Origin: Candidatus Saccharimonadia bacterium
GTDB lineage: Bacteria; Patescibacteriota; Saccharimonadia; UBA4664
Reading direction: 5' to 3'
Assembly (NCBI GenBank): GCA_041743505.1
Contig: JBGTMQ010000019.1
Span: 6,147-70,146 of the forward strand
Length of the DNA stretch: 64,000 nucleotides
A program made the position numbers and the translations under genes. Position 1 is the stretch's first letter, and the number at the start of each line of letters is the position of its first letter. Below are positions 7,750-23,450 of the stretch, in pieces. The notes under the pieces were generated by a model. It was not told the origin of the DNA. It worked only from the letters and a program-made list of their open reading frames with translations, and searched no databases.

Positions 7750-8712
7750 TGTCAATATATCGTAATGGTTCAATAGCTTTGCACCAAGGTTGTGCTTAAA
7801 CTGTTGCCATGCCATATACCTCAAACCCCAATCTGGAACGAGTCCGCATGCAGGCGGTCAAGCTTGTAAGGGGTGGGCAAACCACCCGTGAAGTAGCCCG
7901 TCATTTGGGGTATTCTCATTCCTCGGTGGTGCGCTGGGTGCAGCGGGTAGAGAAAGAACGGCTACATGGCAATGGCGGCGTACCGACCCGTTCCTCGAAG
8001 CCTAAGTCGCATCCCCGTGCCCTCGAACCGGCAATTGTTCAGGCCATTGTCAATGAGCGTCTGAAATCCGGCCGCTGTGCCGAAGTCGTTTACGAGGATC
8101 TCAAAGAGCGAGGAGTCCAGGTTAGTTTGTCGAGTGTCAAACGCACTCTCGACCGACATGAGCTACTCAAGAAAAAATCAAAATGGAAGCGGATCCGACA
8201 ATCGTTACCAAGACCCGACATAACCGCTCCCGGAAGCCTTATTCAAATGGATACGGTTCATTTTGTCGACTGGTCTACCGGAAAACGATTCTATATTTAC
8301 ACCGTTATTGACCTGTATTCCCGCTGGGCATACGCCGAAGTCCACGACAACTTGAGTCAGGCGCTGAGTCTCAAAGTAGCCCTCCGGGCCCAGGTCAAAG
8401 CCGGTTTCGGATTCCAGATGATGCAAACGGACAACGGACCCGAATTCCAAAAATACTTTCATGACATGCTGGCTGCCAGAAAGATTGCCCTGAGGCATTC
8501 ACGGGTACGACAGAGCAACGACAATGCTCATGTGGAGCGGTTCAACCGCACCTTACAAGATGAGTGCGTGAGTTCGTATCCGCTACGGAGGAATGTGACT
8601 CAAAGACGACTAGATGAGTATCTGGATTACTACAATAATGGCCGTCGGCACATGGGAATTAACATGCGGAGACCGGCGGAAGTGGTGCAAAGCTATTGAA
8701 CGCTAAACGACA
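7750..8712 (+). mobile_element. IS481-family insertion sequence (about 963 bp)
   Basis: Single HTH+DDE (rve) transposase ORF. Terminal TGTC ends with a 19-nt perfect subterminal inverted repeat GTTCAATAGCTTTGCACCA (7773-7791, and reverse-complemented at 8682-8700). The right IR overlaps the transposase stop codon. Confidence 0.7.
7809..8699 (+). CDS. IS481-family transposase (HTH + integrase core/DDE)
   Basis: N-terminal HTH followed by an rve core (DTVHF..., TDNGPEF, ERFNRTLQDE). Confidence 0.8.
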   Translation: MPYTSNPNLERVRMQAVKLVRGGQTTREVARHLGYSHSSVVRWVQRVEKERLHGNGGVPTRSSKPKSHPRALEPAIVQAIVNERLKSGRCAEVVYEDLKERGVQVSLSSVKRTLDRHELLKKKSKWKRIRQSLPRPDITAPGSLIQMDTVHFVDWSTGKRFYIYTVIDLYSRWAYAEVHDNLSQALSLKVALRAQVKAGFGFQMMQTDNGPEFQKYFHDMLAARKIALRHSRVRQSNDNAHVERFNRTLQDECVSSYPLRRNVTQRRLDEYLDYYNNGRRHMGINMRRPAEVVQSY

Positions 8713-8762: not shown

Positions 8763-9110
8763 TTAACCGGTCCCCGGCTCGAGGCCACTGACCTTCGCCG
8801 GATCGAGCTTATTGCCGCCCTTCGGGAATATGGTGCCGTGCCCAAGCAGCGGTATTGCGAAGAAGATGCGGCCGTCGCCTATGTCGCCTGGCGGCGACAT
8901 CTCGGCATCCACAAAACACTCAACGGCGCGCCGTTTTTCCCATACGAAATCCAGGCTAAGCTGTGCAGCCCAAAGCAACTTGAAGGTCACTCGTCCATTC
9001 TCCAGTGTGATGCTCTCTATGGGACCGCGATAGAGAATTCCAGACTCATGGAATTCGACATCACCACCAACGAGATCGTCCCGTTCCAGGACCTGCTGCC
9101 AGGTTGTCAC
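8763..9110 (-). CDS. Hypothetical protein; possibly the 3' part of a gene interrupted by an in-frame TGA (see 9144-9389)
   Basis: ORF with a GTG start. The upstream ORF 9144..9389 is in the same frame, separated by one TGA. Confidence 0.35.
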   Translation of the reverse strand: MTTWQQVLERDDLVGGDVEFHESGILYRGPIESITLENGRVTFKLLWAAQLSLDFVWEKRRAVECFVDAEMSPPGDIGDGRIFFAIPLLGHGTIFPKGGNKLDPAKVSGLEPGTG

Positions 9111-9474
9111 TATAAAACATCCCTTATATGTCGAAGAGTATTGTCAGTGGATCTTAACTCTCCAGCGGCCTTCCTCGTGGGATAGTATTGCAACGTGCAG
9201 CCAGTCGGCTTTTTTGGGCTGGAGAGCGATGGCCAACAAGGCTACTAGCGCATGTTCTCGTAGCAGTAGCAGGATGACCGGGCGGCCTTCTGTTCCTCCT
9301 TGGCTCGTGATCCGCTCTAGGGCTCGCCGATTACCAATGGCTTCTTTGCCATGTGCTGACCTCCTTACAAAGGTGCGGATATGGTGCAAAGCCTATAAAA
9401 TAATGACACAAAAAATAAAAAAGTAAAGGCTCCGCTGGCGGCGGAGCCTTGTGCACGTTAGTGCGGTGGGGTCT

Positions 9475-9684
9475 TCACTCCGGCTCAGCCGGAGCAATCA
9501 AGTCCAACAACCTGCGGGTGGCACAGGGCCAAGCCTGTACGGTGCCTTGCCGGTCCCGGCACTGGGCAGCACAGATCACTGGCGCGAACCTGGTTCCATC
9601 AACGCGGTTGTGGAGTGCGAGCAGCTCAGCCAGCTGCGCGCCGCTGACCGTCAGTACCACGGGTGCACCATCGGTGGAGTCCAT
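9475..9684 (-). CDS. Small hypothetical protein (69 aa)
   Basis: RBS AGGAAGGGactactATG. Preceded by an extended -10 TGTGTTATAAT promoter and followed by a hairpin + T-run terminator (9427-9450). Confidence 0.45.
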   Translation of the reverse strand: MDSTDGAPVVLTVSGAQLAELLALHNRVDGTRFAPVICAAQCRDRQGTVQAWPCATRRLLDLIAPAEPE

Positions 9685-9919
9685 AGTAGTCCCTTCCTGT
9701 CCGGTAGTATTGCCTAGCTAACTACGACGCTCAAACCGGATCAACCGGGGTCTGTGAATGCTCAGAGGGAGCATCAAACCTATCCAAGTGCGGATCTATA
9801 CATTATAACACATATGCGAAAATTATGCAAGTATAAGGCCCCGCCAAATTGCGGCGGGGCCGGTGTGTAGGCTAGTCGGCCCACGGAGCATACTATGGAT
9901 TTTCTGACCACCTAAGTCG

Positions 9920-10321
9920 CTAAGCGGCCTGCATATAGGCCCGCGGCCAAAGTGATTTGGGTATCCAATTACCAGCCTCATTTCTAAGCGCCAGGAAGAT
10001 ACACGGTCCCGAGGAGTACTCTATGGACTGCACCGCTTCGACATACACCCGCCCATCCGGGAAGGTGTATTTATAAAGCGGGTAACCTTCGCACATTCCC
10101 GAATAGTGCTCGCCACTCGGCTCCCGCGCCACCGTAGAGCCAAGTACCTGGCGTGGTTCCTGCGTCTCGCGCCGTCCGTCCGGGTACACCCGCACCACCT
10201 CCTCGGTGTACAGGAGAACTTTCTCGCCCCCGACCAACTTCTGCGCCCATGCATTTAGACCAAAAATTTGGTCCTCACGGATCCCCATGTCGGCTCCTTC
10301 GGCTCGTAAACGACTGGTCAC
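9920..10321 (-). CDS. Hypothetical protein (133 aa)
   Basis: ORF coupled by a 4-nt overlap to the upstream ORF. Terminator hairpin at 9836-9862. Confidence 0.5.
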   Translation of the reverse strand: MTSRLRAEGADMGIREDQIFGLNAWAQKLVGGEKVLLYTEEVVRVYPDGRRETQEPRQVLGSTVAREPSGEHYSGMCEGYPLYKYTFPDGRVYVEAVQSIEYSSGPCIFLALRNEAGNWIPKSLWPRAYMQAA

Positions 10322-10818
10322 TGCCGCACAACGAATGCGCCAGACTCGGCCTCATAGACCATTACCTCAGCTTCTGCGTCTGCGGGCCAGTCTTCACCCA
10401 CCAGTACCAGGCAGAGTCGCTGCTCCAGCATCTCCAGCTCTCTCAGCGGCATTTCGTCCCGAATATCATTATAGAAACTTTCGGGAGTCGCGAAACCCAG
10501 GCGCCGTAAAGCGTACTCGCTATCAGTTTCGAATTCGCCGTCATCACCGAAGTAGCCCCGGTAGTAAGAGCTGAGCTCGGCGTAACTTTTCCGGTAGTCG
10601 GCGTTTCCAGGGTCTTCATCGCCGGTAGTAACCTTCCGGTAAAGCTCCGCTTCGTCATCATCGACCAAGACGAACAGAGTGAAGCCGTCATTTTCGCCAT
10701 CAGTACGCTCCGCGCTACCCAAGAAGACACCTTCAGCCACCTCCAGCTGCAAGAGCTTTCTTGCCGCTCGGGCAGCCAAACCAAACAAGGGCTCATGAAC
10801 TTCCGTATGCACTATTGC
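10318..10818 (-). CDS. Hypothetical acidic protein (about 166 aa)
   Basis: RBS GGAGtgataATG at the internal Met (MAIVHTE). Acidic composition. Bicistronic with 9920..10321. Confidence 0.5.
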   Translation of the reverse strand, partial: AIVHTEVHEPLFGLAARAARKLLQLEVAEGVFLGSAERTDGENDGFTLFVLVDDDEAELYRKVTTGDEDPGNADYRKSYAELSSYYRGYFGDDGEFETDSEYALRRLGFATPESFYNDIRDEMPLRELEMLEQRLCLVLVGEDWPADAEAEVMVYEAESGAFVVRQ

Positions 10819-10926
10819 CATTATCACTCCAAATAGTAGGCCAACGGGATGCCCTAATAAATAACATAAATATTGTAAAATGTCCAATATAGTAGCCCCG
10901 TCTCAAGTTGAGTGACCCCTCAAATA

Positions 10927-10978
10927 AAAACCCACCGAAGCGAGATCACCAGTAGGTGAAATCTCGCCCCGGCGGGGG
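10927..10978 (-). terminator. Conserved family-B terminator repeat (copy 1)
   Basis: Same core as 13214-13268. Hairpin + TTTTTATTT on the minus strand, directly after the stop of 10982..11551. Confidence 0.65.
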
Positions 10979-10981
10979 TTA

Positions 10982-11551
10982 CTACGATCCTTTGAGGCGC
11001 TTCAGCCAGTAGGCAGCTCGGGTGGACTCATCCCGGTCACGGAGATTCTCGAGTGTGGCAATGACCATTGCCTGCTCCTCGGCAGTGAAAGCATGCCAGC
11101 GCACTGAGGCCAAGGTGGCAGAATTGTCTTGCTCGAGGCGCCAGGCGGCGTTTCGCCCCACTTTCTTGACCTCTGTCTTAGCGAACGAGTCCCAGAACTG
11201 GTGGTTGTCGTACAGCGTTACCATCTCAATGCCTCGTTCATCCCGGATAGAGGTGAGGTACATGCTTAGCACCTCGACCGTCCAGTCCTCCGGCGGCACC
11301 ACCGTCACGTAATCCGCCGGCCCGGGATTCTCGGCCGGCTCCTCAAGCCAGACGAAGCCTGCGGCTTCAAGGTCGGCCCGAGTGCCTCCAATAATGTGCA
11401 CTGGAATCTTGATCGCCCGGAGGTTGTCGTGCTCCACGTCGTGAGCCTGCAAGACACTGAAACCCTCGGCCAGGTGCATGGCACTATCGGGGTCGTTGCT
11501 GCTTCCAATTGCGCTCAACGCAACTTGGAACGGGCTGGGTGATGCGGTCAT
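10982..11551 (-). CDS. Hypothetical protein (189 aa)
   Basis: RBS AGAGGAGAAcccATG. Followed by a family-B conserved terminator. Confidence 0.55.
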   Translation of the reverse strand: MTASPSPFQVALSAIGSSNDPDSAMHLAEGFSVLQAHDVEHDNLRAIKIPVHIIGGTRADLEAAGFVWLEEPAENPGPADYVTVVPPEDWTVEVLSMYLTSIRDERGIEMVTLYDNHQFWDSFAKTEVKKVGRNAAWRLEQDNSATLASVRWHAFTAEEQAMVIATLENLRDRDESTRAAYWLKRLKGS

Positions 11552-11883
11552 GGGTTCTCCTCTTAGGAGTGTAGTTACTCGTGCATCATGTAGACACTTG
11601 CGTTCGGCGCCTTGGTCACGTTCTCAGTCATTGGACTCCATTTCTTCGAGGCTACGCCATGGACCGCCGCGATCGGCGTTCATTAGCAACGCCAACGTTG
11701 GCGCACTGGGTATGCGCCCACTGGCCAGATACAAACTCAAGGCTGGCCCGGCGCCGGCTTCAGGCTGCTGCTCAGGGGTCGGGTCTGCGGGCGTAGTGGC
11801 CCGCCTCTTCCATCGGCCTAACATTCCCAGCTCCAATCGCGTGGTTAATACCAGAGTTCGACTAGATCCACAGCCATCCTCTG

Positions 11884-12189
11884 CTAAGGCTTCGCAGCGA
11901 TCGCATAGAGGATGAACATAAAGAACGCCATGGCGCCAAACTGGAGCAGGCTTGAACATACTAGCCGCTTCCAGAACGCCCTGGCCGACGTAAACGTCAT
12001 ATCATCCGAGGTAAACATTACCATCACGGAACTGACCAGAATCATGGCCAACCCAAGAGGCAAGTTGACCAGTGCGCCAAAAAACATGCCGCCGAAACCA
12101 AGAGTAGTCTGGGCTAGAATGAACCAAAGGTTGTCACCCAGTCGCTTACTGAGCCGGCCAAGGTATTGAGTATCCAGTGACGAAGTCAT
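11884..12189 (-). CDS. Small membrane protein (about 101 aa); a downstream ORF 11624..11959 in another frame may be a continuation
   Basis: RBS GGGAGccagaATG with an extended -10 TGGTATTATAT upstream. Two hydrophobic helices. Confidence 0.45.
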   Translation of the reverse strand: MTSSLDTQYLGRLSKRLGDNLWFILAQTTLGFGGMFFGALVNLPLGLAMILVSSVMVMFTSDDMTFTSARAFWKRLVCSSLLQFGAMAFFMFILYAIAAKP

Positions 12190-12298
12190 TCTGGCTCCCT
12201 TCGGAAAGCTAGATGTCAAAGAAACCTCAATATAATACCATATTTAGGGAACAAAAGCAACATCAAATTCAATGAAGACATAAAATACTCGGCCAGAA

Positions 12299-12368
12299 GT
12301 GAAAACCCCGCTGGCTGCGAGGCTCACCCATACGGGTGGTCTCGCCCTGGCGGGGCAAAAAGCGGGGA
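12299..12368 (-). terminator. Conserved family-A intrinsic terminator repeat (copy 1)
   Basis: 50-nt core CCCCGCTGGCTGCGAGGCTCACCCATACGGGTGGTCTCGCCCTGGCGGGG, near-identical at 4 loci. On the minus strand the hairpin is followed by TTTTCAC. Confidence 0.7.
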
Positions 12369-12371
12369 CTG

Positions 12372-12836
12372 TTACTCCCCGAGTCGAGATTTCAGGCTAT
12401 GCCACGCCGTCGCGGCAACCTTGGCCCAGTGGTAAGCGGCCGCCGGTATGAGCTCCGTTGGCGTGGAGGGGTAGCAATCCATTCGCTCCTCCGCCCGGCG
12501 GCTGGCTTCAGCGAAGGTTAAACTCTCACCGGGCGCCAGTAACTCCAGTTGATCGAGGTAAAACATCTCAATTGTATCCTCGTACGTCTGGTATCCGAAC
12601 TGCCCTGCGCTGTGACATTCCCCCATCGTAGTGAACCGGCTCTGCAGCGCGTCACTGAAAGCCCTCGGCCGGGTCAGCTTGTCGTTCGGGTCGACCGGCT
12701 CAAAATCTGGGGTCACGTTCAGGAGGCGGTAGTACCGGTCTCCCTCAACCAAAGTAATTGTGAGGCTGCCGTCCGGGTTGACCTCAGCCGCCACCAACCG
12801 GATTACGTTCTGGGCATCAACTACTGAAACGGACAT
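12372..12836 (-). CDS. Hypothetical protein, paralog of 17852..18325
   Basis: RBS AGAGGAcaacATG. N-terminal about 50 aa (SLTITLVEGDRYYRLLNVTPDFEPV) is alignable with SVTITFLLDGRYYTAERIRPDFPAV of the paralog. Confidence 0.6.
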   Translation of the reverse strand: MSVSVVDAQNVIRLVAAEVNPDGSLTITLVEGDRYYRLLNVTPDFEPVDPNDKLTRPRAFSDALQSRFTTMGECHSAGQFGYQTYEDTIEMFYLDQLELLAPGESLTFAEASRRAEERMDCYPSTPTELIPAAAYHWAKVAATAWHSLKSRLGE

Positions 12837-13213
12837 GGTTGTCCTCTCGAGCATGCATCACTACAGATGCGAGCAAATGCGAACACATACATAATAACAT
12901 AAATCCTATGACTTTGCAAGCAAAATAGTGTAAAATGATGGATTGTACCACGTCGGCCACAGTCGTAACGGACACTTCACTTATCGTCAATCGAAACGCC
13001 CCGCACATTAGCGGGGCGTAGTGGTCTCGGCCTACTTGAACTCGGCCAGCCGTTAGAGAAACAACGTCAGCGCGCGGCCACCTCACGCCTAACGCTCAAA
13101 CCGGCCTGTCCGATAGATCTAGGACTTGGCAACGGATCACCTCCTTTCTCTTAATACAATCGCTATCTTATAGGGCCCCCGCCAAACGGTCAATGCCATC
13201 AGCACATGCCAAG

Positions 13214-13268
13214 AAAAACCGCCGGAGCGAGATCACTAGTAGGTGAAATCTCGCCCCAGCGGGGTGGG
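13214..13268 (-). terminator. Conserved family-B terminator repeat (copy 2)
   Basis: GCGAGATCAC(T/C)AGTAGGTGAAATCTCGCCCC core shared with 10927-10978. Followed by a T-run on the minus strand. Confidence 0.65.
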
Positions 13269-14285
13269 TTAGAGCTGCCGCTCAATAATCAGGTCGCCCG
13301 AACCTCGGCGGCGCTTCTGTATCTCGCCCTCGACTATGTTGACCTTGAGGTCTCCTGAGCCATTCAGCTTCAGGTTGGCCGTGCCGGCGGTGCCATCGAT
13401 TGTGAGTTCGCCGGAGCCATTGTTGGTGGCCGTCAGTCTCGGGTGGTAACCAAACACAACCGTCAGATCACCTGATCCATTGATCTCGGCCTCAACCGGA
13501 CCATTAACCCGGACAACCTCGATCTCGCCGCTGGCGGATACATTGGCATCCAGTGAGGTGGCCGAGCCGCCCAAGATATTGATATCGCCGCTGGCCCTAG
13601 TCTTGGCTGTCACCGGTCCTGAAACCGCTGCAACCTCGATGTCGCCACTTGCGAGAGTGGTCAGGTCAGCGCTGCTGACCTGACCTGCCGTGACATTGCC
13701 ACTACGTGCTTCCACGAACAGTGGACCGTGAGTATCGCCAATCACGACATCACCCGAGTCACCGTCCACGTTCACGGAGGTGCCCGGCGGCACCTTCACC
13801 AGAACCTGAACGGACGGACCGCTCTGGATGGTCGTTTGACTGAAAAAGCTGCCAAAGCGGAGGCTGCCAACCCGCATGTTGCTGGTACTGAGGCTTGCCG
13901 GCCGCGCCGCGGTAGAATCCTCGTCGATTCGGAGGACCGAGCCAGTTTCGCCGGTACCAGTGGCAACATTGCACCGCACCGCCCTGGCCAGATCATCCGG
14001 ACCCGTGACAGTGACTTCGAAGCCGCTGACATCCGCTACTTCAACCGTGACATCGGCCTTCAGCCGGGACAGGATCAGGCGGTCGGCTTGGTAACGGGTA
14101 GGGCCGAGCGTGACTCGGTCCGGGCTAACGTCTGTGTCGAGGTTGATGTAGCCCGGTCCCCCGTTGTGCACTTGCCCGGTTCTAACGTTGCACCAGCTGC
14201 CGTCCGCGAAATACACGGTGTCGTTGACAATGCTCCGGACTGCTTTGTCGGAATCGATAACGCGGTCATTGACGGTGAAGGCCAT
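13269..14285 (-). CDS. DUF4097/DUF2807-like repeat protein (putative beta-helical adhesin-like)
   Basis: Multiple SGD(I/L)/SGE(I) repeats spaced about 20 aa apart (ASGDIEV, ASGDINI, ASGEIEV, GSGDLTV, GSGELTI, GSGDLKV). RBS GAAAGGatggctATG. Confidence 0.6.
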   Translation of the reverse strand: MAFTVNDRVIDSDKAVRSIVNDTVYFADGSWCNVRTGQVHNGGPGYINLDTDVSPDRVTLGPTRYQADRLILSRLKADVTVEVADVSGFEVTVTGPDDLARAVRCNVATGTGETGSVLRIDEDSTAARPASLSTSNMRVGSLRFGSFFSQTTIQSGPSVQVLVKVPPGTSVNVDGDSGDVVIGDTHGPLFVEARSGNVTAGQVSSADLTTLASGDIEVAAVSGPVTAKTRASGDINILGGSATSLDANVSASGEIEVVRVNGPVEAEINGSGDLTVVFGYHPRLTATNNGSGELTIDGTAGTANLKLNGSGDLKVNIVEGEIQKRRRGSGDLIIERQL

Positions 14286-14410
14286 AGCCATCCTTTCAGG
14301 GTACGAGCAGAGGTTTGCTAGCTTCCTGAGCTAGGCACAGGATTTTAAATCATAACACAAAAAATGAAAGTTGTCTACTATAGGCGAATAACAATCCAAT
14401 GTTGCCAAAA

Positions 14411-14466
14411 TAAAGGCCCCGCTGGCTGCGAGGCTCACCCATACGGGTGGTCTCGCCCTGGCGGGG
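14411..14466 (-). terminator. Conserved family-A terminator repeat (copy 2)
   Basis: Core identical to copy 1, immediately 3' of the gene 14467..15273. Confidence 0.7.
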
Positions 14467-15273
14467 CTAGGCAGGCTGAGCCCGGCTCTCATGTTCGAGC
14501 ATTATCGTCCCAGCCCGGATGAAACGGTCTGTGTAATTCGAGTCCGGATTGCTATCCTCGAAGGTGGCATGGCCGCTCGGAAATATGAATCCAAAGGCTT
14601 CATCACCACCCTCCTTGTCCGAAGGCTCGCTGGTGACTTCACCCTCGAACATCTTGCCAGACTGGCCGTTTTCCTCCCATTTCAACTCGCATGGACATAT
14701 CTTTGTGATACGGACAACGACTATCTTCGAGTAGGGATTGTCAGCCTCAGGCTCTGTCGTAAAGGTTACGACGCTACCAACACCCAGCGACTCGTAGGGT
14801 TCCGGGTACGTGGCCATGAAACGGCGCATGGAGAACATACCAATCGCTTCAGCTTCGGTAATCCGGAAACTTCTCCAGTACCAACTAGGATCGTACGTTG
14901 CATCCGGTATGCCCAGAGCTTCCCAATCCACGCGTGAAAGCCGTTTGAGGAAACCATCAATGAAGTCAACGTTTGGTCGTAAGGCATCAAATTCCGCCTC
15001 ACTCAGTTTGTGCCGGCTTGTCAGCAGGATCTTGCGCTCATGGCGAACAATCAAAACGAGGTCAATACGATCTTCGACGCGAACAATCTTACTGGTGAGC
15101 AGCCGGTTCAGGATAGCGACTTCGTCAGCAAAGATCTTGAGACATGATGTGAGCTCATCGCCTTTGAGATCTTTCAGGAGTTTGGCGTCCCTAACCACGT
15201 TTCGCTGCAGTGTATTTGCTAGCCAGGAAAGCTCTTCCGAATGAAGTCCGTAACCCTCTACCTCAGCGGACAT
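14467..15273 (-). CDS. Hypothetical protein (268 aa)
   Basis: ORF with an RBS at the internal Met (MSAEVEG). Extended -10 promoter upstream. Confidence 0.5.
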   Translation of the reverse strand: MSAEVEGYGLHSEELSWLANTLQRNVVRDAKLLKDLKGDELTSCLKIFADEVAILNRLLTSKIVRVEDRIDLVLIVRHERKILLTSRHKLSEAEFDALRPNVDFIDGFLKRLSRVDWEALGIPDATYDPSWYWRSFRITEAEAIGMFSMRRFMATYPEPYESLGVGSVVTFTTEPEADNPYSKIVVVRITKICPCELKWEENGQSGKMFEGEVTSEPSDKEGGDEAFGFIFPSGHATFEDSNPDSNYTDRFIRAGTIMLEHESRAQPA

Positions 15274-15370
15274 TACTTGCCCTTCTGTGAGAAAACAATC
15301 GAACATATATATAAAAACGCGAAACCAAAATAATTACAATGTGGGCCCGGCCAACGATCAGCGCCGCATA

Positions 15371-15403
15371 AAAATAAAGGCCCCGCTAAACTTCAGCGGG
15401 GCC
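15371..15403 (-). terminator. Family-C terminator (GGCCCCGCtaaacttcaGCGGGGCC)
   Basis: Near-identical hairpin also at 16075-16104. Preceded by an A-run (a T-run on the minus strand). Confidence 0.6.
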
Positions 15404-15433
15404 ATCAGCGGCTGTTGATAGGCAAACGTGGTG

Positions 15434-16003
15434 TCACGCCTTATCAGATTCCCATGGGCCGAACCACAGTCCAGTGGCGGCCAAGAGCGACCGGCGGGCC
15501 ATATCCCGGTCACTGGCCTGGTAGGCCGGACTGAGCGCGGCGTAGCGCAAGCGGGCCAATGCCCGCCAGCGTTGCACCTTTTCCGGATTCCACGCTAACA
15601 GCATATAGGAAACCCAGTGCGTGGTCTGCTCCCATTCCTGCCGCTCCATCGCCTCAAACCGCACCGGCCGGATCGTGGTCCGGCACTCGGTCTCGATGAT
15701 GTGTTGGGCAATCCGCGCCCAGCGTGTGCAATAGATCTCACGCTCATAAGGTGTCAATTCTTCGAAAGATTTGCGCATTAGGATGCAGTAGGCTGCATCC
15801 TCACTTGGGACAGCGTGCATCCAGGGCTCAAACATATCAATCCATTGTTCGTGTTCGAGGTCCCCAAGTAAATGCAGGAGCGGGAAGTCTGGGTCAAATG
15901 CCCGCAACTCCTCATCCCGCCGGTCATTACTGAGCGAGTCGAAGGCGAAAGTGGGCCGCCACTCGCCCATGTCAGCGTACGGGAAACTTGGGCGGTCAGT
16001 CAT
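15434..16003 (-). CDS. Hypothetical Trp-rich protein (189 aa)
   Basis: Long ORF flanked by a family-C terminator and an AT-rich promoter. Confidence 0.5.
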   Translation of the reverse strand: MTDRPSFPYADMGEWRPTFAFDSLSNDRRDEELRAFDPDFPLLHLLGDLEHEQWIDMFEPWMHAVPSEDAAYCILMRKSFEELTPYEREIYCTRWARIAQHIIETECRTTIRPVRFEAMERQEWEQTTHWVSYMLLAWNPEKVQRWRALARLRYAALSPAYQASDRDMARRSLLAATGLWFGPWESDKA

Positions 16004-16074
16004 CGTGGTCCAATCGGCCGAATTTTTGATCTAGGACCGCTATATAATACAATATTTAATTGACAATTGCAATA

Positions 16075-16104
16075 GAAAAACCCCGCCAAACTTCAGCGGG
16101 GCCA
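16075..16104 (-). terminator. Family-C terminator (copy 2)
   Basis: CCCCGCCaaacttcaGCGGGGCC + A/T runs. Confidence 0.6.
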
Positions 16105-16113
16105 GCTCATGGT

Positions 16114-17478
16114 CTAATTTCGAAGCTTGGTCCTGTGGCCTAAAGCCGGATTGGGCGCCTGACCACGCTGATGAGTCCGGACGTAGGTTTCGCCTTCAGA
16201 TAAGCTAATTCCTCGCTCCTCCCAAGCTAGCTGGCGCGCCCTTTCGGTCGCTGTGCACCCCGCCGGTAGCGGGCGGACGAAGCCGGTTACGGAGTGACGA
16301 GCCGTCGGCTCACGGTCCAAACGCTCCGTCTCGGCCATAGCATCCGCCATTTCTCGCTGCAGAGCGAGCCGTACGGCTGCTGGATCCCCGAGCACGCGCA
16401 GGCGGGGAAGCACCAGGTCGCGCAGACCGGCTCTCCATCGCTGCCTGTGCTCGTCACGTTCGCGGTGTCCCTTTGGCAGTACCGGCCAGGCCGGCACTGC
16501 CAAGCCAGGCGCTACGTACTGCGGTACAATCAAGTTATACAGCCTCAGTAGCTGAATAATTCGGAAGAGCGTGTAGGCTACAGTCCGGTCCGCCTGAACA
16601 AAGCATTCGCGCAGTGATACGGCGCCAATCCCAACATCAGTCGTAAACTCGCCGGCAACGCCAATGGCGGCCATCAGCTTACTCCGAAAGTCGAATTCAA
16701 CGCCGGCGTAGTCGAGGTTCTCAGCCCGGTGCGCCACCCTCGTTGGTTCAAGGTGCCCAATTTCGCTCCTTGCAGCCAAAATTGCCAACGCCAATGGCTT
16801 TGTCAACTCGAGACGGTCGTCGCTGTCTATGTCACGTACGACGTCATAGCCGTCCACGAAGACCCAGGCGTCCTCATTGCTATGCAAGATACCGTCTTGA
16901 AACAAACAGGGCTTCACGCCATACGCCCGGTGCTCCGCCAAGGCCGTCGCCAACTCGGAGATCACTCGCTCGCCGTCTTTGATGCCCACAGCAGCCAGCT
17001 GTTCGGCCGCTTCCTCGTCAGCCGGCATCTGCCGCTTCAGTAGGTGCACAGCGTAGTGGTGGGCCACGTAACTCTTGTAGAAGCTACCCGCCTTGAAGTA
17101 GAGCCAGCCGTGGAACTGTGACAGCCGGAGCGACTCCACGAACTGCCCTAGCTCTTTCAGGTACGACTCGTCCAGAGGTAACCGCACCGCGCCGAGCCGC
17201 GCCAGCGATACCGCCAGCATATTGCTAATAACTGACGCATGCTGGTAACCCACAACCTCCTGTTTGATCGTGTCGATCGTGTCCATAACATCCAGGAGGC
17301 GCTGGAGTTGGTTGCGAATCGGCCCGGCTATTTCGAACCAGCCGTATATCCGGTGAACCGCCGCGGCTATTTGCGCAGCCGATACGGCATCAGGCTGGCG
17401 CAGCAGCTTAGTAACCAGCAGCTCCAGCGAGGTGTCACGCACTCGTCTCGGTGCCTGGATAGGCCACGGGATAGTCAT
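16114..17478 (-). CDS. Hypothetical protein (about 454 aa), largest cassette gene
   Basis: RBS GGAAGAAGGtagccATG. Contains an Rx4H-like motif (GHRERDEHR), but no confident domain assignment. Confidence 0.5.
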   Translation of the reverse strand: MTIPWPIQAPRRVRDTSLELLVTKLLRQPDAVSAAQIAAAVHRIYGWFEIAGPIRNQLQRLLDVMDTIDTIKQEVVGYQHASVISNMLAVSLARLGAVRLPLDESYLKELGQFVESLRLSQFHGWLYFKAGSFYKSYVAHHYAVHLLKRQMPADEEAAEQLAAVGIKDGERVISELATALAEHRAYGVKPCLFQDGILHSNEDAWVFVDGYDVVRDIDSDDRLELTKPLALAILAARSEIGHLEPTRVAHRAENLDYAGVEFDFRSKLMAAIGVAGEFTTDVGIGAVSLRECFVQADRTVAYTLFRIIQLLRLYNLIVPQYVAPGLAVPAWPVLPKGHRERDEHRQRWRAGLRDLVLPRLRVLGDPAAVRLALQREMADAMAETERLDREPTARHSVTGFVRPLPAGCTATERARQLAWEERGISLSEGETYVRTHQRGQAPNPALGHRTKLRN

Positions 17479-17780
17479 GGCTACCTTCTTCCGCATCCGA
17501 TGTAAATGACCAGTAAACTATACTTCTATAGCATAAAATAAACAAAAAGTCCAAAAATAACTAGCCGGCCCCCAAAGCGGGAGCCGGCCATTGTCGCTGT
17601 GCAAGATTCAGGATAGGTCGCAGTAGGCGCTGTACTCATGAAGCACGTCGGGGCCCAGGTATGCCCGGACTGAGTTGCCCGAGGTGCGGCAGCCGGTGGC
17701 CACCGGGTCTTCAATCGCGTTGTGATAGTAGCCGGTGTTAGAACCGTCCGTATTGAAATAGACCTTGGTTAGGCCTGCAA

Positions 17781-17839
17781 AGTGAAAACCCCGCTGGCTG
17801 CGAGGCTCACCCATTCGGGTGGTGCTCGCCCTGGCGGGG
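17781..17839 (-). terminator. Conserved family-A terminator repeat (copy 3)
   Basis: Core is 48/50 identical to copies 1 and 2. Confidence 0.7.
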
Positions 17840-17851
17840 CGGTGTGGAAAT

Positions 17852-18325
17852 CTATTTTCCGGTGATGATCTTTTCGAGCCGCAGCCAGACCGTTGTGAAG
17901 ACCTTGAGGGCCTCGTAGTACGACCTGTTGGTCGGCTCCACATCGTCCAGCCTACAGCTGATGAGGTAAGCCTGGAAAGCCGGTCCAAACGTCTGATCGC
18001 GTTTTCTGAGGAGGTCTAGGATGAGTTTCAACTCGCAGCGCTCTTCAGGCAGGAAGTACCGCCGCGATACTCCGGTGTTCTCGACTTCGAGACGCCGGTC
18101 GTCCAGCCTGTCGCCTCCGGGGGAGTAGATGGAACCGGCAAACACCAGCTTGGCATCGTCGGGCACGGCAGGGAAGTCTGGACGGATGCGCTCGGCAGTG
18201 TAATACCTGCCGTCGAGCAAAAATGTGATGGTGACACTTCCGCCGTGAAGACTCAAATCCACACGCTGGGGCGTGAAACGGGCGTTCAGCTCAGCCATAC
18301 GGTCATCGGTAGTGCTGGCGGTCAT
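17852..18325 (-). CDS. Hypothetical protein, paralog of 12372..12836
   Basis: RBS GAGGAGtggtccaaATG. Shared N-terminal motif with 12372..12836. Confidence 0.6.
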   Translation of the reverse strand: MTASTTDDRMAELNARFTPQRVDLSLHGGSVTITFLLDGRYYTAERIRPDFPAVPDDAKLVFAGSIYSPGGDRLDDRRLEVENTGVSRRYFLPEERCELKLILDLLRKRDQTFGPAFQAYLISCRLDDVEPTNRSYYEALKVFTTVWLRLEKIITGK

Positions 18326-18601
18326 TTGGACCACTCCTCACTTGGGGCTAGGTCATCTTGGAGATGTTTAAGGTCCTGTTATCCGAACAGTAATATAATA
18401 ACACACAAGGCGTAAAAAGTCAAGGTGAAATTACTGACAGTCAATCGATATCGTCCTTAACTCTGCTTGCTCTTGATCTAGGCCACCTCAAATGAAGCCT
18501 ACCTGCCAGCACCCACCCCGCAGCCGAACCTGGTTTGCGGGGTGATTATTATTAAAAAGGCTCCATAAGTACAATCAAACTTCCTTTTCAGGGTGAGTTA
18601 G

Positions 18602-18630
18602 TTGACACAATGACAATCATATTATAGAAT
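18602..18630 (+). promoter_or_regulatory. Strong sigma70-type promoter (TTGACA-17-TAGAAT) driving an ORF-less transcript
   Basis: Perfect -35 TTGACA at 18602-18607, a 17-nt spacer, and TAGAAT at 18625-18630. Confidence 0.6.
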
Positions 18631-18636
18631 ACCAAA

Positions 18637-19355
18637 TGTTACTTGAAAGAATATTGTGTAGCGTTAATTGATCTTTTACTCAAAAAGCTTAGTTAACGCT
18701 ACACAAGTAGCGACAAACATGCACCAGGGCACTGGCGAAGCGCGCACTTGCCACCGCCTGCTGCATGAGTAAAAACGGTACTCCAGTCTGGCGGGACCCT
18801 CCGCACCTCCGCCTTCGGGCTGAGGTAAGTGCCGTTGCATATCGTACCTTGCTGAGAGGTGCGGTCAGTGCCTTGCGTGGTGCTGTCATACTCAGCCGGG
18901 CCAGGGGTTAGTCGCCTGTCCCGTTTGCTAAGAGCCGGAAACGACTGCTGTGCCGTGGTGCATTCCCACGGCTGACACTGATTCAGTGTTGCTCGCCCGT
19001 AAGCGGGTTGGAATGCCCATTGGGAACATGTCAGGAGGTAGCTCCTCCGCATGTGAGCCGCCCAAAGGCCTACGCTCAGTCTTAGGCAAACTGAGGCAGC
19101 ACAGCCCATCAAGGGCCTCCCCGCTGCACCAAGAGGGGATACTTCTCGGGTAAGGTTCTAGCGCCATTGCGCACCCTATAGAGCGGAACCGGGACGCAAC
19201 TCGGAACCGTGGGTACTCGCCAAGCCTCCCGCTAAGTCGGGGAACGAGCGATAGATGGCTGCAACTCTGTGTGTCCCGAGGACACAGAAGCTATCGAACA
19301 ATTACCTACGCCTACGGCATCTGCCGCCGGCCGGCCCCTTCGGGGGCCTTTTTTT
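18637..19355 (+). ncRNA. Candidate large structured non-coding RNA (about 720 nt) of unknown class
   Basis: Bounded by the promoter above and an intrinsic terminator (GGCCCCttcgGGGGCC + T7 at 19333-19355). About 60% GC. Numerous local hairpins (GGAGGtagctCCTCC, GCGCcattGCGC, CCCGtaagCGGG, CCCGctaagtCGGGG, 12-bp stem GTGTAGCGTTAA/TTAACGCTACAC). All six frames carry only junk ORFs rich in Cys, Trp and Arg. Confidence 0.5.
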
Positions 19356-19396
19356 GTCAAAATCATCGGAGCACTGACCCTGATCGCTTTGCACAA

Positions 19397-19594
19397 CTAC
19401 AAAGTTACCAGCCTCTTTGAGCTGCCTTGTAATAATACCGCCAGTCTTGACGCCACTAAATCGGCTATGAGCTGATGACCTTCATCATTGGGGTGGACAC
19501 TATCCGGCAATAACTCAGATTCTAATTCCGCCTTTGAAAATGGCTCAAATATATCAACAAATTCTAAGTTGTTGTATGAGCAAAAATTACCCAA
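19397..19594 (-). pseudogene. Remnant of a TesA-like SGNH/GDSL hydrolase (C-terminal block V only)
   Basis: LLPDSVHPNDEGHQLIADLVASRL matches GDSL block V (DGxHPN..A..IA). The upstream part of the gene is absent in all frames. Confidence 0.55.
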
Positions 19595-19662
19595 CGTATT
19601 GTCAAATTCTTTAATTCGCGCTATCGCAACTAAAATTCAGAGACAAATTCAGGCAGGTACGT

Positions 19663-20241
19663 TTACAGTCTGGCAACTACAACAACGATAAATATTCCTG
19701 CAGCATTCAACAAAAAGGTTACTACGAAAAATTGCCAGCGTCGTATTTTAGATAGCCCCAGCATACTTACTCCAATCTCATCAGGGAGCGGAGAGGCAAT
19801 AATAGCTGCTCCAATCACAGGTAGCGTCCAGGCAAATAGTGGAGTTTTAAAAAGTGTTCTTAGGTAAGGATGATTAATTTTACTAAACAATGGCTGAAGC
19901 TCGTCAAAAACTCTATCTTTCATAAAACGAAAAATAATGTAATCACCCACCATTGCTCCGAGGCCAGCAAGAAGTGCTACTTCAATAGGGTGTAGGCTGT
20001 CGGCGAGATGATATAGGACAACCGCCGCAGGAGCAACCGTAAAAGTAGAAACAAAAAATATTCCTGTAATGAAGGCACCGAGATAGCCCAGGTTACCAAT
20101 CTGGCCAATAATACTATCTACGAAAGGTGTCTGTGCAAGGATGAAAAACAAAACGAGACTTAGCAATAAAAAACATGTATTTTTATATCGCCACCGACGC
20201 CAACGTCTACGCATCTGTTTGTAATGCTTGTGTTTCGGCAT
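19663..20241 (-). CDS. Membrane protein, DedA/VTT-like (192 aa)
   Basis: Several TM helices with a basic N-terminus. Lies in an AT-rich patch (19360-20300). Confidence 0.4.
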   Translation of the reverse strand: MPKHKHYKQMRRRWRRWRYKNTCFLLLSLVLFFILAQTPFVDSIIGQIGNLGYLGAFITGIFFVSTFTVAPAAVVLYHLADSLHPIEVALLAGLGAMVGDYIIFRFMKDRVFDELQPLFSKINHPYLRTLFKTPLFAWTLPVIGAAIIASPLPDEIGVSMLGLSKIRRWQFFVVTFLLNAAGIFIVVVVARL

Positions 20242-20349
20242 TGTTTATGGAGTATCTCATAATGACGAGAAAAGAACATAATACAGAGGTCATTTCGCTT
20301 ATGCTTGGAGGGCCAGATCAGATTCGAAGTAACAATCACAAAACAAAGT

Positions 20350-20390
20350 GAAAACCCCGCTGGCTGCGAGGTTCGCTCATAGCTAGCGGG
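20350..20390 (-). terminator. Family-A terminator, truncated variant (copy 4)
   Basis: Shares AGTGAAAACCCCGCTGGCTGCGAGG with the other copies. The hairpin overlaps the stop codon of 20383..21162. Confidence 0.55.
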
Positions 20391-21162
20391 GCGGGTGGTC
20401 GGTCACGACAACAGGTTGAAGCTCAGAATGGCGTTCCATGAGCTCCTCGTACTGGCGATCAAGCCAATCCATCATGCTCTGGTCATGCCATTCCGCAAAC
20501 TCGCGGTCGGCAATGCGCCGGTAAATGGCGTTCTGCCGCTCAACCCATCGCAGGTAACGCCTGTAGCGTCGGCCTCGCGTAGGAATGGGATGACGCGGCC
20601 GCTCGACACCGAAGTGGTCGTACAGGATCACTAGGATGGACGGCACCGGCAACGCGTCTTCGAAATCATGTGGATACTCCTGCCCCTGCCAGAGCATTAC
20701 GCGCTGGAAATGCTGGACCGTACCCGTCGCAAGCCACTCGAAGAGCAGGGTGTCACACTCCGGACAGCGGTTACACTGAGCGCTGATCTGCTTGTACGGG
20801 ATGAAATGACCACAGTGGTCGCACTTGGCCACCAGCGGCAAGTACAGCACGTACTCGTCCGCCCAATTGAGCGGACTGTCAAAGCCGCCATCGTAAGAGT
20901 AGCCGTAGCTGCACAGCTCAGCGATGAGTTCATCCAGCGTCTGCTGGATAGGTGGCAGGTCAGGCCGGAAGTGTTCACTAATCATGATGTGAACATTGTC
21001 GTCCTCCACAGTGCTCCAGCGAACATGCCCAGTCGTAATGCGCAAACCTTTGCGCAGCAAAGCTGCAGCGCGTGCATGCTGCCTACGAGTAGGGCCGCTA
21101 GGACAGCGCAAGCGCTTCAGGGCCTTTTTCGCCTTACGGGGGAGCTTCTTGGTTGGGTCCAT
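20383..21162 (-). CDS. Hypothetical protein with Cys4 zinc ribbon (CDHCGH...CNRCPEC)
   Basis: RBS GAGTGAGGttcgtaATG. Basic N-terminus and a zinc-ribbon motif. Confidence 0.5.
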   Translation of the reverse strand: MDPTKKLPRKAKKALKRLRCPSGPTRRQHARAAALLRKGLRITTGHVRWSTVEDDNVHIMISEHFRPDLPPIQQTLDELIAELCSYGYSYDGGFDSPLNWADEYVLYLPLVAKCDHCGHFIPYKQISAQCNRCPECDTLLFEWLATGTVQHFQRVMLWQGQEYPHDFEDALPVPSILVILYDHFGVERPRHPIPTRGRRYRRYLRWVERQNAIYRRIADREFAEWHDQSMMDWLDRQYEELMERHSELQPVVVTDHPPR

Positions 21163-21242
21163 TACGAACCTCACTCTGTCGGTGGGAGATGGATTAGGTA
21201 CGAGACAATAATTATATTAACATAAAACACAAATAATTGCAA

Positions 21243-21318
21243 TGGTGGGCCCGGCTGGACTTGAACCAGCGACCAAGCGGTTATGAGCCGCCTGCTCTAA
21301 CCACTGAGCTACGGGCCC
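21243..21318 (-). tRNA. tRNA with CAT anticodon, Ile2 (lysidine)-like
   Basis: Cloverleaf: GGGCCCG acceptor stem, D-arm GCTCAGTGGTTAGAGC, anticodon loop CTCATAA, T-arm GGTTCAAGTCC, encoded CCA. Sequence closely resembles enterobacterial tRNA-Ile2 (ileX) as recalled from memory. Confidence 0.75.
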
Positions 21319-21351
21319 CTGGACACCTAAGCAGTATACTATACTGTAAAT

Positions 21352-21747
21352 ATGAAACTGCCCGGCCTACCTAAATTCGAGCTCAACCTGGTGAACGTCC
21401 TGAACGTAGCCGGTGCTGCCGCTATCATATATTTGGTCGTGATTCTTGGCCAGACCATTACCAAGAATTACACCTTAAACAAGCAAGTTTCTGACCTGCA
21501 AGAGCAAATCACGCAGCTACAGGACCAAAAAGACACGTTGGCGTATAACATCGAGTACTACAAGACCAAATCGTATCAGGAGCGCGAGGCGCGCGCTAAA
21601 CTCGGTTTGCAGATGCCGGACGAGACCGTCGTCATACTGCCAGCGCCCAAAGTAGCGCCCACCCCGGTTCCCGAATCGCCAACCACCGCCATCAAAAAGA
21701 AGTCCAATTTTGCCCAATGGGTCGATTTTCTGAGCGGTAAAAGCTAG
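21352..21747 (+). CDS. ftsB: Septum formation initiator family protein (FtsB/DivIC-like)
   Basis: N-terminal TM helix then a coiled coil (QVSDLQEQITQLQDQKDTLAYNIEYYK), typical of FtsB/DivIC. Confidence 0.55.
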   Translation: MKLPGLPKFELNLVNVLNVAGAAAIIYLVVILGQTITKNYTLNKQVSDLQEQITQLQDQKDTLAYNIEYYKTKSYQEREARAKLGLQMPDETVVILPAPKVAPTPVPESPTTAIKKKSNFAQWVDFLSGKS

Positions 21748-22907
21748 GCTCTCGCTTCACGCAGGCTCAATCCAAGGGCGCCTAAAGCCCACCAGGTAGC
21801 CACCAACCACAAAGTCCAACCCAGGATCGGTATGGCAAATATCAGAATAGTCGCAGGAATGCCTATGACAGCAGCCCACACTAGCGAGTCACGAGCTTCT
21901 TGCCAGTCAGTCCGGCCAAGAATCCAGCGGCCGGCCGCAATACCGACAAGTATGCCGCTTACACCCCAGGCAAGCAGCCAAGCGCCGAACGCCAGCAGGG
22001 CCAGTGGTATGCCAACAAGTGTGAAGAGCAGGACAAAAGCTGCCAATGGCACCACAAACATCACCACGACGCCCCAGCCAATACTGGGCCCCGGCCGGTT
22101 AGCCATAATGCCCGTAACCGTGCGGACAGCCCGCGGTAGAAGCCAGATCAGTAACAGCGCAATCACCAGCGAGGCCAGCATCCAGTAAACGGCTCCGGCT
22201 ACCCAACCCAGAAACTCATCTCGCGGTGAGTCCTTCGGCTGCTGCTCCTTGGGCGGCTCGTGGCGGTTTATGTTGCCACCAACCCTGTCGTCACCAACAC
22301 TCGCCGTCTTAGCGCTGGTGTAGTTGAGGTCGCCATTCACCCGGCCGGTCGAGGTCACATTAAGGTTGTCCACGTGCGCGTCCACACTGCCCTCGATCGC
22401 CGCCGCCAGCGTCAGGCTCTCCATAGCACCGTACAAGTCCCGGCCCACCGAACCATTGATGGTACCGACCTGGCTCAGCGTAGCCACCTCGCCGGTAACT
22501 CTCGCGCTGGAACCTAGTGTAAAGGTCTGCGATGCCACAGACACGTTGCGGCCAACGGTACCGTTAATCCCCACGGTCTGCGCGGCCACCCGCACATTCC
22601 CCTCAACCGGGCCGTTAATCGTCACGGTCTGCCCGGCACACAGCACGTCACCGCGCACGCTACCGTTGACGGTTATGGTGTTACCAGCGCACCACACATC
22701 GCCGTCCACATCGCCGTCAATGGTGATATTCTGCCCGGCCGCATACAGCGAGCCGCGGTGCGTTTCGCCCTTGGCTACAGTCACATTATCGCCTGATTTA
22801 AGGCTAAAACCGAGCGCAACGCTCGGCACCAGAACAAGGGCCAGCGCCGCCAACCCCGATGCAACAAACAGATGAAATCGCTTCATGTTATCACTCACTA
22901 TTATCAC
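21744..22907 (-). CDS. Bactofilin-like/beta-helical repeat protein with N-terminal signal peptide and C-terminal multi-TM domain
   Basis: Repeats of the type GDVxCAGxTVTINGxVxGNV. Signal peptide, and a C-terminal Trp-rich TM region. Confidence 0.5.
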   Translation of the reverse strand: MIIVSDNMKRFHLFVASGLAALALVLVPSVALGFSLKSGDNVTVAKGETHRGSLYAAGQNITIDGDVDGDVWCAGNTITVNGSVRGDVLCAGQTVTINGPVEGNVRVAAQTVGINGTVGRNVSVASQTFTLGSSARVTGEVATLSQVGTINGSVGRDLYGAMESLTLAAAIEGSVDAHVDNLNVTSTGRVNGDLNYTSAKTASVGDDRVGGNINRHEPPKEQQPKDSPRDEFLGWVAGAVYWMLASLVIALLLIWLLPRAVRTVTGIMANRPGPSIGWGVVVMFVVPLAAFVLLFTLVGIPLALLAFGAWLLAWGVSGILVGIAAGRWILGRTDWQEARDSLVWAAVIGIPATILIFAIPILGWTLWLVATWWALGALGLSLREARA

Positions 22908-23027
22908 TTATTAGCATACTCCAAGCCTTACCCAAGCTCAAACATAAGCCGGTAGTTTGCTGACAAAGGGCCGGTCCACCTATGAAAACTTGCCATTACG
23001 AATCTAATACTGTATAAGTGTGTCAGC

Positions 23028-23450
23028 ATGAATAAAGCGCTTTCCTCAATCTATCAACACATCGCTCCGGCCCACCGCGCGATTTGGCGCTTTGGCATAT
23101 TGCTATGGCCTGGTTTCTTCTGGAAATATGCTTTGGCATCGGGCAGTTATAAGCCGGAGAGCTTTTTTTCATTTGTCGTGGTGGTTTATCTGGGACTTGA
23201 ACTGGCAAATATTATCCACGAATACCAACGCCCTCGACCGGATAAACTTGGCGTGTCCCAATCTTCCAAAGAATTTATAAAATCATTAATCTGGATTCAC
23301 GGGAGCTTTACGATCGTTTGTCTGGTTATCCAGCGTGATCATCTCCTGACCAGCTTACCTTGGCTAGCACTAATATGGCTTGTCGCAGTAGGAGCTTATT
23401 TCCTCCGCCCCAAGCCAATAACTGACAGCCCAAAATTTGCTATTGCATAG
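23028..23450 (+). CDS. Small membrane protein, tandem paralog 1 (YxHIAPAHRAIWR family)
   Basis: Leaderless start directly after a TGTATAAGT -10 element. Conserved N-terminal motif SIYQHIAPAHRAIWR followed by 3-4 TM helices. Confidence 0.6.
   Translation: MNKALSSIYQHIAPAHRAIWRFGILLWPGFFWKYALASGSYKPESFFSFVVVVYLGLELANIIHEYQRPRPDKLGVSQSSKEFIKSLIWIHGSFTIVCLVIQRDHLLTSLPWLALIWLVAVGAYFLRPKPITDSPKFAIA

Follow-up and report, generated by a model that had tools for sequence, protein, structure and literature searches.

A probable tRNA-anchored array of self-contained orphan-gene cassettes on a Candidatus Saccharimonadia chromosome

The stretch of Candidatus Saccharimonadia bacterium DNA analysed here (64,000 nucleotides of contig JBGTMQ010000019.1, assembly GCA_041743505.1, hereafter the window) was found to carry a row of about 11 minus-strand transcription units between position 9415 and the CCA end of a tRNA gene with anticodon CAT. 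This gene row, the array considered below, includes open reading frames (ORFs) of 69–460 aa (9475–21174), as the original prediction from the letters of the sequence had described, and is interpreted with a probability of about 0.6 as a flexible chromosomal region that is anchored at a tRNA gene in a bacterium with a small genome and is assembled from expression cassettes complete in themselves. A cassette would consist of a sigma70 promoter with an extended -10 element, often a hairpin in the 5' leader, a Shine-Dalgarno sequence, one ORF or two of restricted lineage distribution and, as insulation from the neighbouring units, a long intrinsic terminator rich in GC. Relatives provide most of the support for the earlier proposal of a variable accessory island, built of cassettes at the 3' end of a tRNA gene: seven cassettes have homologues in unrelated contexts, the terminator travels with the gene in three families, and a block of genes is present or absent in a related array. 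Neither conservation of the gene order in distant relatives nor membership of the proteins in ordinary housekeeping families, the two outcomes that had been named as contradicting the proposal, was found.

For seven of the cassette proteins, homologues were found amid unrelated neighbours, with no case of synteny. For the 122-aa family (window 9920–10288), the sequences of L015, L016, L018 and L013 are alike from the -35 element to the terminator, and nothing outside these limits is shared. Between L015 and L018, nucleotide sequence identity is 83% in the coding region, 76% in the promoter and leader and 87% in the terminator, while the flanks are unrelated. These cassettes are 7–16 GC points richer than their contigs (0.43–0.56 vs 0.34–0.47 for the rest of the contig). 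In five of the six independent loci with enough upstream sequence, the 122-aa homologue is linked to tRNA genes, five different tRNA species being involved. It either follows tRNA-Arg, -Leu, -Glu or -Met at a distance of 134 nt to 1.8 kb or lies inside an array of 29 tRNA genes, and is always on the tRNA strand. Under a rough null of ~45 tRNAs per Mb, chance proximity to a tRNA gene would be expected in less than 10% of cases per locus. In L019, 29 tRNA genes are packed into 10 kb with small ORFs between them.

The type of terminator travels with the gene in three families; thus, a B-type terminator accompanies the gene of the 460-aa family in L001, and a composite A/C-type hairpin accompanies that of the 160-aa family in L007 (the terminator families are described below). 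L007 also links the array with a second, shorter array present in the window, as homologues of one gene from each are adjacent there, beside YebC/RuvC: the homologue of a 235-aa gene of the second array adjoins the homologue of the 160-aa family. The relatives of one cassette stem from 0.1-micron groundwater fractions. Among the relatives, the promoter-to-terminator unit is conserved while its flanks differ, and such units accumulate 3' of tRNA genes.

Polymorphism was observed in a related array carried by three 99.9%-identical contigs from three samples, L025, L026 and L027. In these, tRNA-Asn is followed by 8–9 small genes on the same strand without Pfam match (L025 5833–11198), one of which encodes a 40% homologue of the product of window gene 12372–12854. 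A block of 2,260 bp with four genes, present in L025 and L027 but missing from L026, is bounded by 112-nt direct repeats (97% identical) that start 7 nt inside tRNA-Asn. Copies resembling the tRNA 3' end occur between blocks of L025 (6053–6071, 8256–8285 and 9828–9858), and promoter-leader and terminator modules recur along the array. No recombinase, integrase or replication hallmark gene was found in the L025–L027 arrays, which are flanked by IS481-like genes.

The anchoring tRNA gene (21243–21318, minus strand; ARAGORN and Rfam) is on the same strand as the array, which lies 3' of it, and the first array promoter begins 1 nt past its CCA end. The acceptor stem is GGGCCCG. The gene is probably that of tRNA-Ile2, and this call is reasonable because the acceptor stem includes C4-G69/C5-G68, of the two other CAT tRNAs in the window one resembles an initiator (C1 mismatch, GGG/CCC anticodon stem) and one an elongator, and tilS is present. 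The latter (PP-loop, 34073–34963, followed by ftsH within 34073–36925, plus strand) fits the use of a lysidine-modified tRNA-Ile2(CAU). The identity given to this tRNA in the original prediction is therefore plausible, though short of proof.

Counted from the tRNA, unit 1 (20346–21242, all units on the minus strand) has the promoter TTGCAA-N17-TATGTTAATAT (21214–21241), an orphan ORF for a 263-aa Zn-ribbon-like protein (20383–21174) and the 3' half of a family-A terminator (20346–20392). Unit 2 (19663–20345) encodes a 192-aa protein (19663–20241) with five transmembrane-like segments and a weak VTT/DedA-like match; the GC content at third codon positions (GC3) is 0.34 and there is no family terminator. 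Unit 3 (17780–18423) has the promoter TTGACT-17-TGTGTTATTAT (18395–18423), an ORF of 160 aa (17852–18334) and a family-A terminator (17780–17840). In unit 4 (16071–17554), the promoter TTGGAC-18-TATAGA (17525–17554) abuts the previous U-tract and precedes the 460-aa ORF (16114–17496) and a family-B terminator (16071–16104), right after which the promoter of unit 5 (15371–16072) is found (TTGCAA-17-TATTAT, 16044–16072), with an ORF of 189 aa (15434–16003) and a further family-B terminator (15371–15404). Unit 6 (14408–15345) has a weak promoter at ~15308–15339, an ORF of 268 or 279 aa (14467–15273/15306) and a family-A terminator (14408–14467).

In unit 7 (13214–14377) the promoter TAGACA-17-TGTGTTATGAT (14349–14377) precedes a gene for a 340-aa DUF4097/DUF2807 (LiaG-like) beta-helix protein (13269–14291) and a family-C terminator (13214–13264). 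Unit 8 (12297–12919) has the promoter TTGCAA-17-TATGTTATTAT (12891–12919), an ORF of 154 or 160 aa (12372–12854), whose stop codon is covered by a small hairpin, and a family-A terminator (12297–12356). Unit 9 (10927–12262) is polycistronic, with the promoter TATGGTATTAT (12232–12262), an ORF for a 111-aa membrane protein (11884–12219), an ORF of 189 aa (10982–11551) and a family-C terminator (10927–10977). The bicistronic unit 10 (9829–10887) consists of an ORF for a 167-aa acidic protein (10318–10821), the 122-aa ORF (9920–10288) and a family-B terminator (9829–9862). The latter is abutted by the promoter of unit 11 (9415–9830), TTGCAT-N17-TGTGTTATAAT (9802–9830), which is followed by a two-hairpin 5' leader, an ORF of 69 aa (9475–9684) and a terminator at 9426–9450. 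The modular organisation proposed earlier is real.

Nine units end in a terminator of family A, B or C. Family A comprises 55–60-nt copies at 12297–12356, 14408–14467 and 17780–17840 and the partial copy at 20346–20392, with a perfect match of 50 nt between the copies at 12297 and 14408; family B has three copies (9829–9862, 15371–15404 and 16071–16104) and family C two (10927–10977 and 13214–13264, 90% identity). Three families of near-identical terminators had been predicted and are present, but the copy numbers are corrected to three plus one partial for A, three for B and two for C. All form a stable hairpin followed by a U-tract (-16 to -37 kcal/mol), and terminator-like sites in the region number 23, against 12.9 ± 3.3 in shuffled sequences. 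Similarity is limited to the hairpin and the U-tract, the flanking coding sequences being unrelated, so the cassette genes are not duplicates of one another. Families A and C have the same architecture, with an outer stem CCCCGC/GCGGGG, an internal loop, a middle stem GCGAG/CTCGC and a variable tip. The tail of the A copy at 14408 is identical to that of the B copy at 15371 (AGCGGGGCCTTTATTTT), which indicates that the terminator modules are mosaic. At 17552–17554, 16072–16079 and 9830–9837 the next -35 element abuts the U-tract, giving composite terminator-promoter modules. A 24-mer and a 29-mer of family A had no matches in viral and metagenome collections. Public short-read contigs of the same strain (L004, L028 and L029, compared with window 14438–25755) terminate inside family-A repeats (14438 and 17785–17809); since they end exactly inside the A copies, the length and identity of these repeats suffice to interrupt assembly.

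The extended -10 motif TRTGNTAWDAT occurs seven times in the whole 64-kb window, compared with 0.96 ± 1.0 in shuffles. Six copies are intergenic, on the minus strand and inside the array (9802, 12232, 12891, 14349, 18395 and 21214), and the seventh, at 29592, is in the second array. More broadly, a TTG at -35 together with an extended -10 element is common to nine aligned upstream regions. A near-consensus promoter of this type had been expected on every unit; six carry TRTGNTAWDAT, but not all. Core genes also have extended -10 promoters (44283, 50607 and 58964), so the promoter type is normal for the genome and it is the density that is unusual. A 5' untranslated region with two hairpins recurs in three leaders, that of unit 11 and those of two second-array units. 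As for leader motifs, CCTAGATC was not significant, and CCGGTTTGAGCGT, with two exact copies, was borderline. An 11-codon mini-ORF, MAKKPLVIGEP, with a strong Shine-Dalgarno sequence lies at ~9317–9352 (minus strand), in the long leader between a promoter at ~9395–9420 and the ORF 8763–9110.

The array is broken at 18335–19662 by the 3' remnant of a hydrolase gene and a candidate RNA gene on the plus strand. The original prediction had described ~12 kb of minus-strand genes; the units are real, but this non-genic stretch of 1.3 kb was overlooked. The remnant at 19400–19640 (minus strand) is a pseudogene corresponding to the last ~55 residues of a GDSL/SGNH hydrolase, its translation matching positions 126–178 of the 178 of the Lipase_GDSL_2 profile (E 8e-7). 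A second break in the array is an older ORF remnant, of which the 3' part survives (17552–17779, minus strand; ORF part 17600–17780); it is cut off by unit 3 and has its own terminator (17562–17590). Both truncated genes are at cassette junctions and suggest that insertions were imprecise.

The plus-strand segment 18602–19355, antisense to the array, is a candidate for a structured RNA of ~720 nt. It has a promoter (TTGACA-17-TAGAAT, 18602–18630), a 24-bp 5' hairpin (18654–18706) and a UUCG-capped terminator (19333–19355), with a GC-rich stretch between. The minimum free energy is -309 kcal/mol, with a z score against shuffles of -6.15 for the plus strand and -3.5 for the minus strand. Rfam contained no family for the segment at E<=1, and searches for relatives in the DNA of phages and plasmids and among miscalled ORFs found none.

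A search of all main ORFs of the array against Pfam, NCBIfam, PADLOC and PHROGs disclosed only the DUF4097/DUF2807 (LiaG-like) protein of unit 7 and the weak VTT match of unit 2. The earlier statement that the proteins have no recognisable function is thus true of most, the LiaG-like protein being the exception. Likewise, not all of them are cytoplasmic, as had been supposed: most are predicted to be soluble, and acidic, but the products of 11884–12219 and 19663–20241 are membrane proteins. The majority would therefore be soluble, mostly acidic accessory proteins. The proposed paralogs 12372–12854 and 17852–18334 are a weak pair, sharing only the N-terminal ~40 residues (BLASTP E 3e-5; hhalign probability 88%). 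For the 460-aa protein, a single further protein cluster, at 51% identity, turned up among 5.8 billion. An exhaustive HMMER search with six concatenated proteins gave, in terms of 50%-identity clusters, more than 100 for the 122-aa family, about 14 for the 279-aa family and two to six for the rest, and all matches were unnamed metagenome singletons. AlphaFold models of the 122-aa and 279-aa families had pLDDT (predicted local distance difference test) values of 95.5 and 88.6, respectively; structure searches with both gave generic matches only and no meaningful structural neighbour in PDB or among viral proteins.

The window is part of a bacterial chromosome, with genes for FtsH, MurJ, Mur ligases (MurC), LepA, DnaK and TilS at 33–64 kb. 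At the distal border of the array lies a gene for a DDE transposase of the insertion sequence (IS) family IS481 (rve and helix-turn-helix, HTH; 7809–8699, plus strand), and the distal side also includes genes for a NUDIX-like protein, a trypsin-like protease, a phospholipase D (PLD) nuclease and a type III restriction-modification (R-M) system (N6_N4_Mtase and ResIII). The IS481, type III R-M and PLD genes reported there earlier are accordingly confirmed by their domains. GC3 on this side is 0.45–0.64, below that of core genes. Genes similar to IS481 are likewise found beside the related arrays of L018 and L026/L027. A synteny search of genome contigs with the flanking bactofilin-like gene gave one distant match (a metagenome-assembled genome of Candidatus Falkowbacteria, 39% identity), without a tRNA, and an exact look-up of the DivIC-like protein found no record.

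The second array (28857–31550, plus strand) begins directly 3' of tRNA-Met (28857–28931) and has three or four orphan units, with extended -10 promoters at 28970–28997, 29573–29602 and 31046–31073 and terminators at 29513–29545, 30981–31014 and 31514–31549 that are alike among themselves. Within the 64 kb, the A/B/C repeats and TRTGNTAWDAT are confined to the two tRNA-anchored arrays. Three tandem paralogous genes for small membrane proteins (131–140 aa, 444-bp period) are located at 23028–24311 (plus strand), with a GC content of ~0.45, below the genome average. The window differs from the public contig L028 by eight single-nucleotide polymorphisms, six of which fall in this segment.

Several observations weigh against the interpretation of the region as a flexible cassette array. 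Pfam scans of the ORFs in and around both arrays disclosed no recombinase and no Phage_integrase domain, only the rve domain of the IS481 transposase; the 3' end of tRNA(CAT) has no second copy in the window at up to three mismatches, and no tRNA-end-like intergenic sequence was found. No close relative of the window genome with other cassette content was found, and the array shows no differences in same-strain public contigs, so the variability of the array is deduced from relatives that share one or two genes with it. In most cassettes GC3 (0.64 ± 0.10) matches the core-gene value (0.68 ± 0.06), the gene 19663–20241 being the exception, and it accordingly gives no indication of a recent foreign origin for this array, which may be long-resident. 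The modules of the L025 array have no sequence similarity to those of the window. Last, the family-A hairpin (12304–12356, 14415–14467 and 17787–17840) is 5–7 kcal/mol more stable as antisense, plus-strand RNA, its internal loops being C-A mismatches on the mRNA strand, a result unexpected because a pure terminator reading does not predict better antisense folding. The strand test is mixed, as families C and B retain pairing through G-U pairs on the mRNA strand.

Some of these points would suit an ordinary resident region of small lineage-specific genes, inherited vertically by a bacterium whose usual transcription unit is monocistronic and strongly terminated; near-identical terminators would then arise from local gene conversion or from a genome-wide repeat similar to repetitive extragenic palindromic (REP) sequences, with no role in gene flux. 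The agreement of cassette and core GC3, the extended -10 promoters and long hairpin terminators of core genes, the lack of a recombinase or attachment (att) repeat in the window and the identity of the same-strain contigs all fit such an origin. It is nevertheless considered unlikely, as synteny is absent among the homologues of seven cassettes, the array contains or adjoins truncated genes and an IS, the repeats and the promoter motif are restricted to the two tRNA-anchored arrays within 64 kb, and a related tRNA array is polymorphic among 99.9%-identical genomes. For the flexible cassette array favoured here, the most likely mechanism would be gain, loss and reshuffling of units through Campbell-type recombination, in which DNA carrying cassettes recombines at the repeated modules or tRNA flanks; this step might proceed by homologous recombination on 50–110-nt repeats, through a recombinase acting in trans, or by both, and occasional illegitimate joins may have left the truncated genes. 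A broader proposal is that of a recombinase-less cassette system in bacteria like those of the candidate phyla radiation (CPR), in which whole units are captured serially at tRNA 3' flanks and reshuffled through shared terminator-promoter modules. Such a system would be a chromosomal counterpart of the shuffling of promoter-early stem-loop (PeSL) cassettes in phages, a functional analogue of the integron lacking IntI and attC, and the main route by which these bacteria gain and test orphan genes; it is put forward tentatively, and is rather doubtful in this general form.

An integron-like origin would make the hairpins, with their outer stem, internal loop, middle stem and variable tip, attC-like sites for a recombinase encoded elsewhere, and the array a cluster of attC sites lacking an integron integrase (CALIN). 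Small orphan ORFs in the same orientation, each followed by a near-identical imperfect palindrome, the better folding of family A on the strand opposite the mRNA and the tRNA-end-like att remnants of the related array agree with this; yet no tyrosine recombinase was found among the scanned ORFs, a reading of the sequence disclosed no RYYYAAC/GTTRRRY boxes, every hairpin has a U-tract on the mRNA strand, the cassettes have promoters of their own, and the G-U pairs by which families C and B hold their pairing on the mRNA strand point to selection at the RNA level, so that this origin appears very improbable. Equally improbable is a decayed prophage or integrative element at the tRNA, whose moron-type genes would have outlived the lost integrase and structural genes. 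The location at a tRNA 3' end, the promoter-ORF-terminator form typical of morons, the defence genes and IS nearby and the tRNA-end remnants of L025 recall such an element, but there is no PHROG match, no match in phage, plasmid or IMG/VR collections, no viral structural neighbour and no att repeat, and a second array of the same kind lies at another tRNA. Whatever its origin, the array could encode a set of orphan proteins for immunity, antitoxin or anti-defence functions, comparable to rAID-type (recombinase-associated acquired interbacterial defence) immunity islands, as products that are small, soluble and mostly acidic, units that are individually expressed according to their predicted promoters and terminators, and type III R-M and PLD nuclease neighbours might suggest. 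An immunity or antitoxin repertoire, or a new type of defence array, had indeed been proposed in the original prediction. No support for such a function was obtained, since PADLOC, Imm/SUKH/Tsi-type Pfam families, PHROGs and NCBIfam gave no match, no toxin or recombinase is adjacent and the structure matches are non-specific, and the possibility is regarded as quite remote, if slightly less so than the two preceding ones.

In ultra-small bacteria, genes without known function are numerous, and the route by which they are acquired is poorly understood. If exchange proceeds by whole cassettes, with tRNA flanks and shared modules as docking points, this would explain where orphan genes accumulate, provide a simple sequence signature by which flexible genes could be found in metagenome-assembled genomes, and extend to cellular chromosomes a mechanism known only from T4-type phages. 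The region also adds two protein families with confident predicted folds that lack PDB neighbours, and a candidate large structured RNA.

Among known systems, chromosomal integrons and CALINs resemble the array in that small ORFs, mainly orphans, stand in one orientation and each precedes a similar, imperfectly palindromic sequence. An integron has IntI and attI beside the array, and a CALIN at least two attC sites with R''/R' (RYYYAAC...GTTRRRY) and L boxes; their cassettes are promoterless and served by a common Pc. The window array differs in that IntI and attC R/L boxes are absent and the hairpin arms CCCCGC...GCGGGG have no AAC/GTT cores, while most units have their own extended -10 promoter and the hairpins carry U-tracts, as intrinsic terminators do. 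From rAID-like or polymorphic-toxin immunity arrays it is set apart by the lack of an Imm/SUKH/Tsi-type Pfam or PADLOC match and of an adjacent toxin or recombinase. Palindromes of the REP/BIME type are scattered over whole genomes in many copies and often accompany a RAYT transposase; in the 64 kb analysed here, every A/B/C copy is within the arrays. Phage morons are reportedly autonomous promoter-gene-terminator insertions (Juhala/Hendrix 2000). They resemble the cassettes in being single genes with their own promoter and terminator, variably present among relatives and at times different in composition from their flanks, as are the 122-aa cassettes; here, however, the units are outside a prophage, form tandem arrays of about 11 and share regulatory modules.

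PeSL cassettes were described in the hyperplastic regions of T4-type phages (Arbiol et al. 2010, PMC2839356; Comeau et al. 2014, PMC4122927), where the repeated motifs delimit the indels that distinguish close relatives, in agreement with formation of circles and their integration. Composites of a strong sigma70 promoter and a stem-loop terminator between small ORFans, repeated across unrelated genes and densest in the most variable regions, are common to both systems. The array described here is, in contrast, on a bacterial chromosome beside tRNA genes and has no PHROG or viral match; terminator and promoter are adjacent and not interleaved as in PeSL, and the repeat families differ in sequence. 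No mini-circles were observed; a comparable event among the relatives is the 2,260-bp indel between L025 and L026, bounded by its 112-nt intergenic repeats. In Prochlorococcus, integrative elements named tycheposons remodel tRNA-anchored islands (Hackl et al., bioRxiv 10.1101/2020.12.28.424599). Likenesses to these islands are the location of both window arrays directly 3' of tRNA genes, the partial tRNA copies between blocks of L025 and the gain or loss of blocks among near-identical strains; the arrays differ in that they have no integrase or replication module, that the window has no tRNA-end repeat and that the cargo consists of single orphan genes and not of operons. Lacking phage context, integrase and attC features, the array appears to fall outside the PeSL, moron, tRNA-island and integron classes, and its closest known parallels are PeSL modules, phage morons and tRNA-anchored islands.

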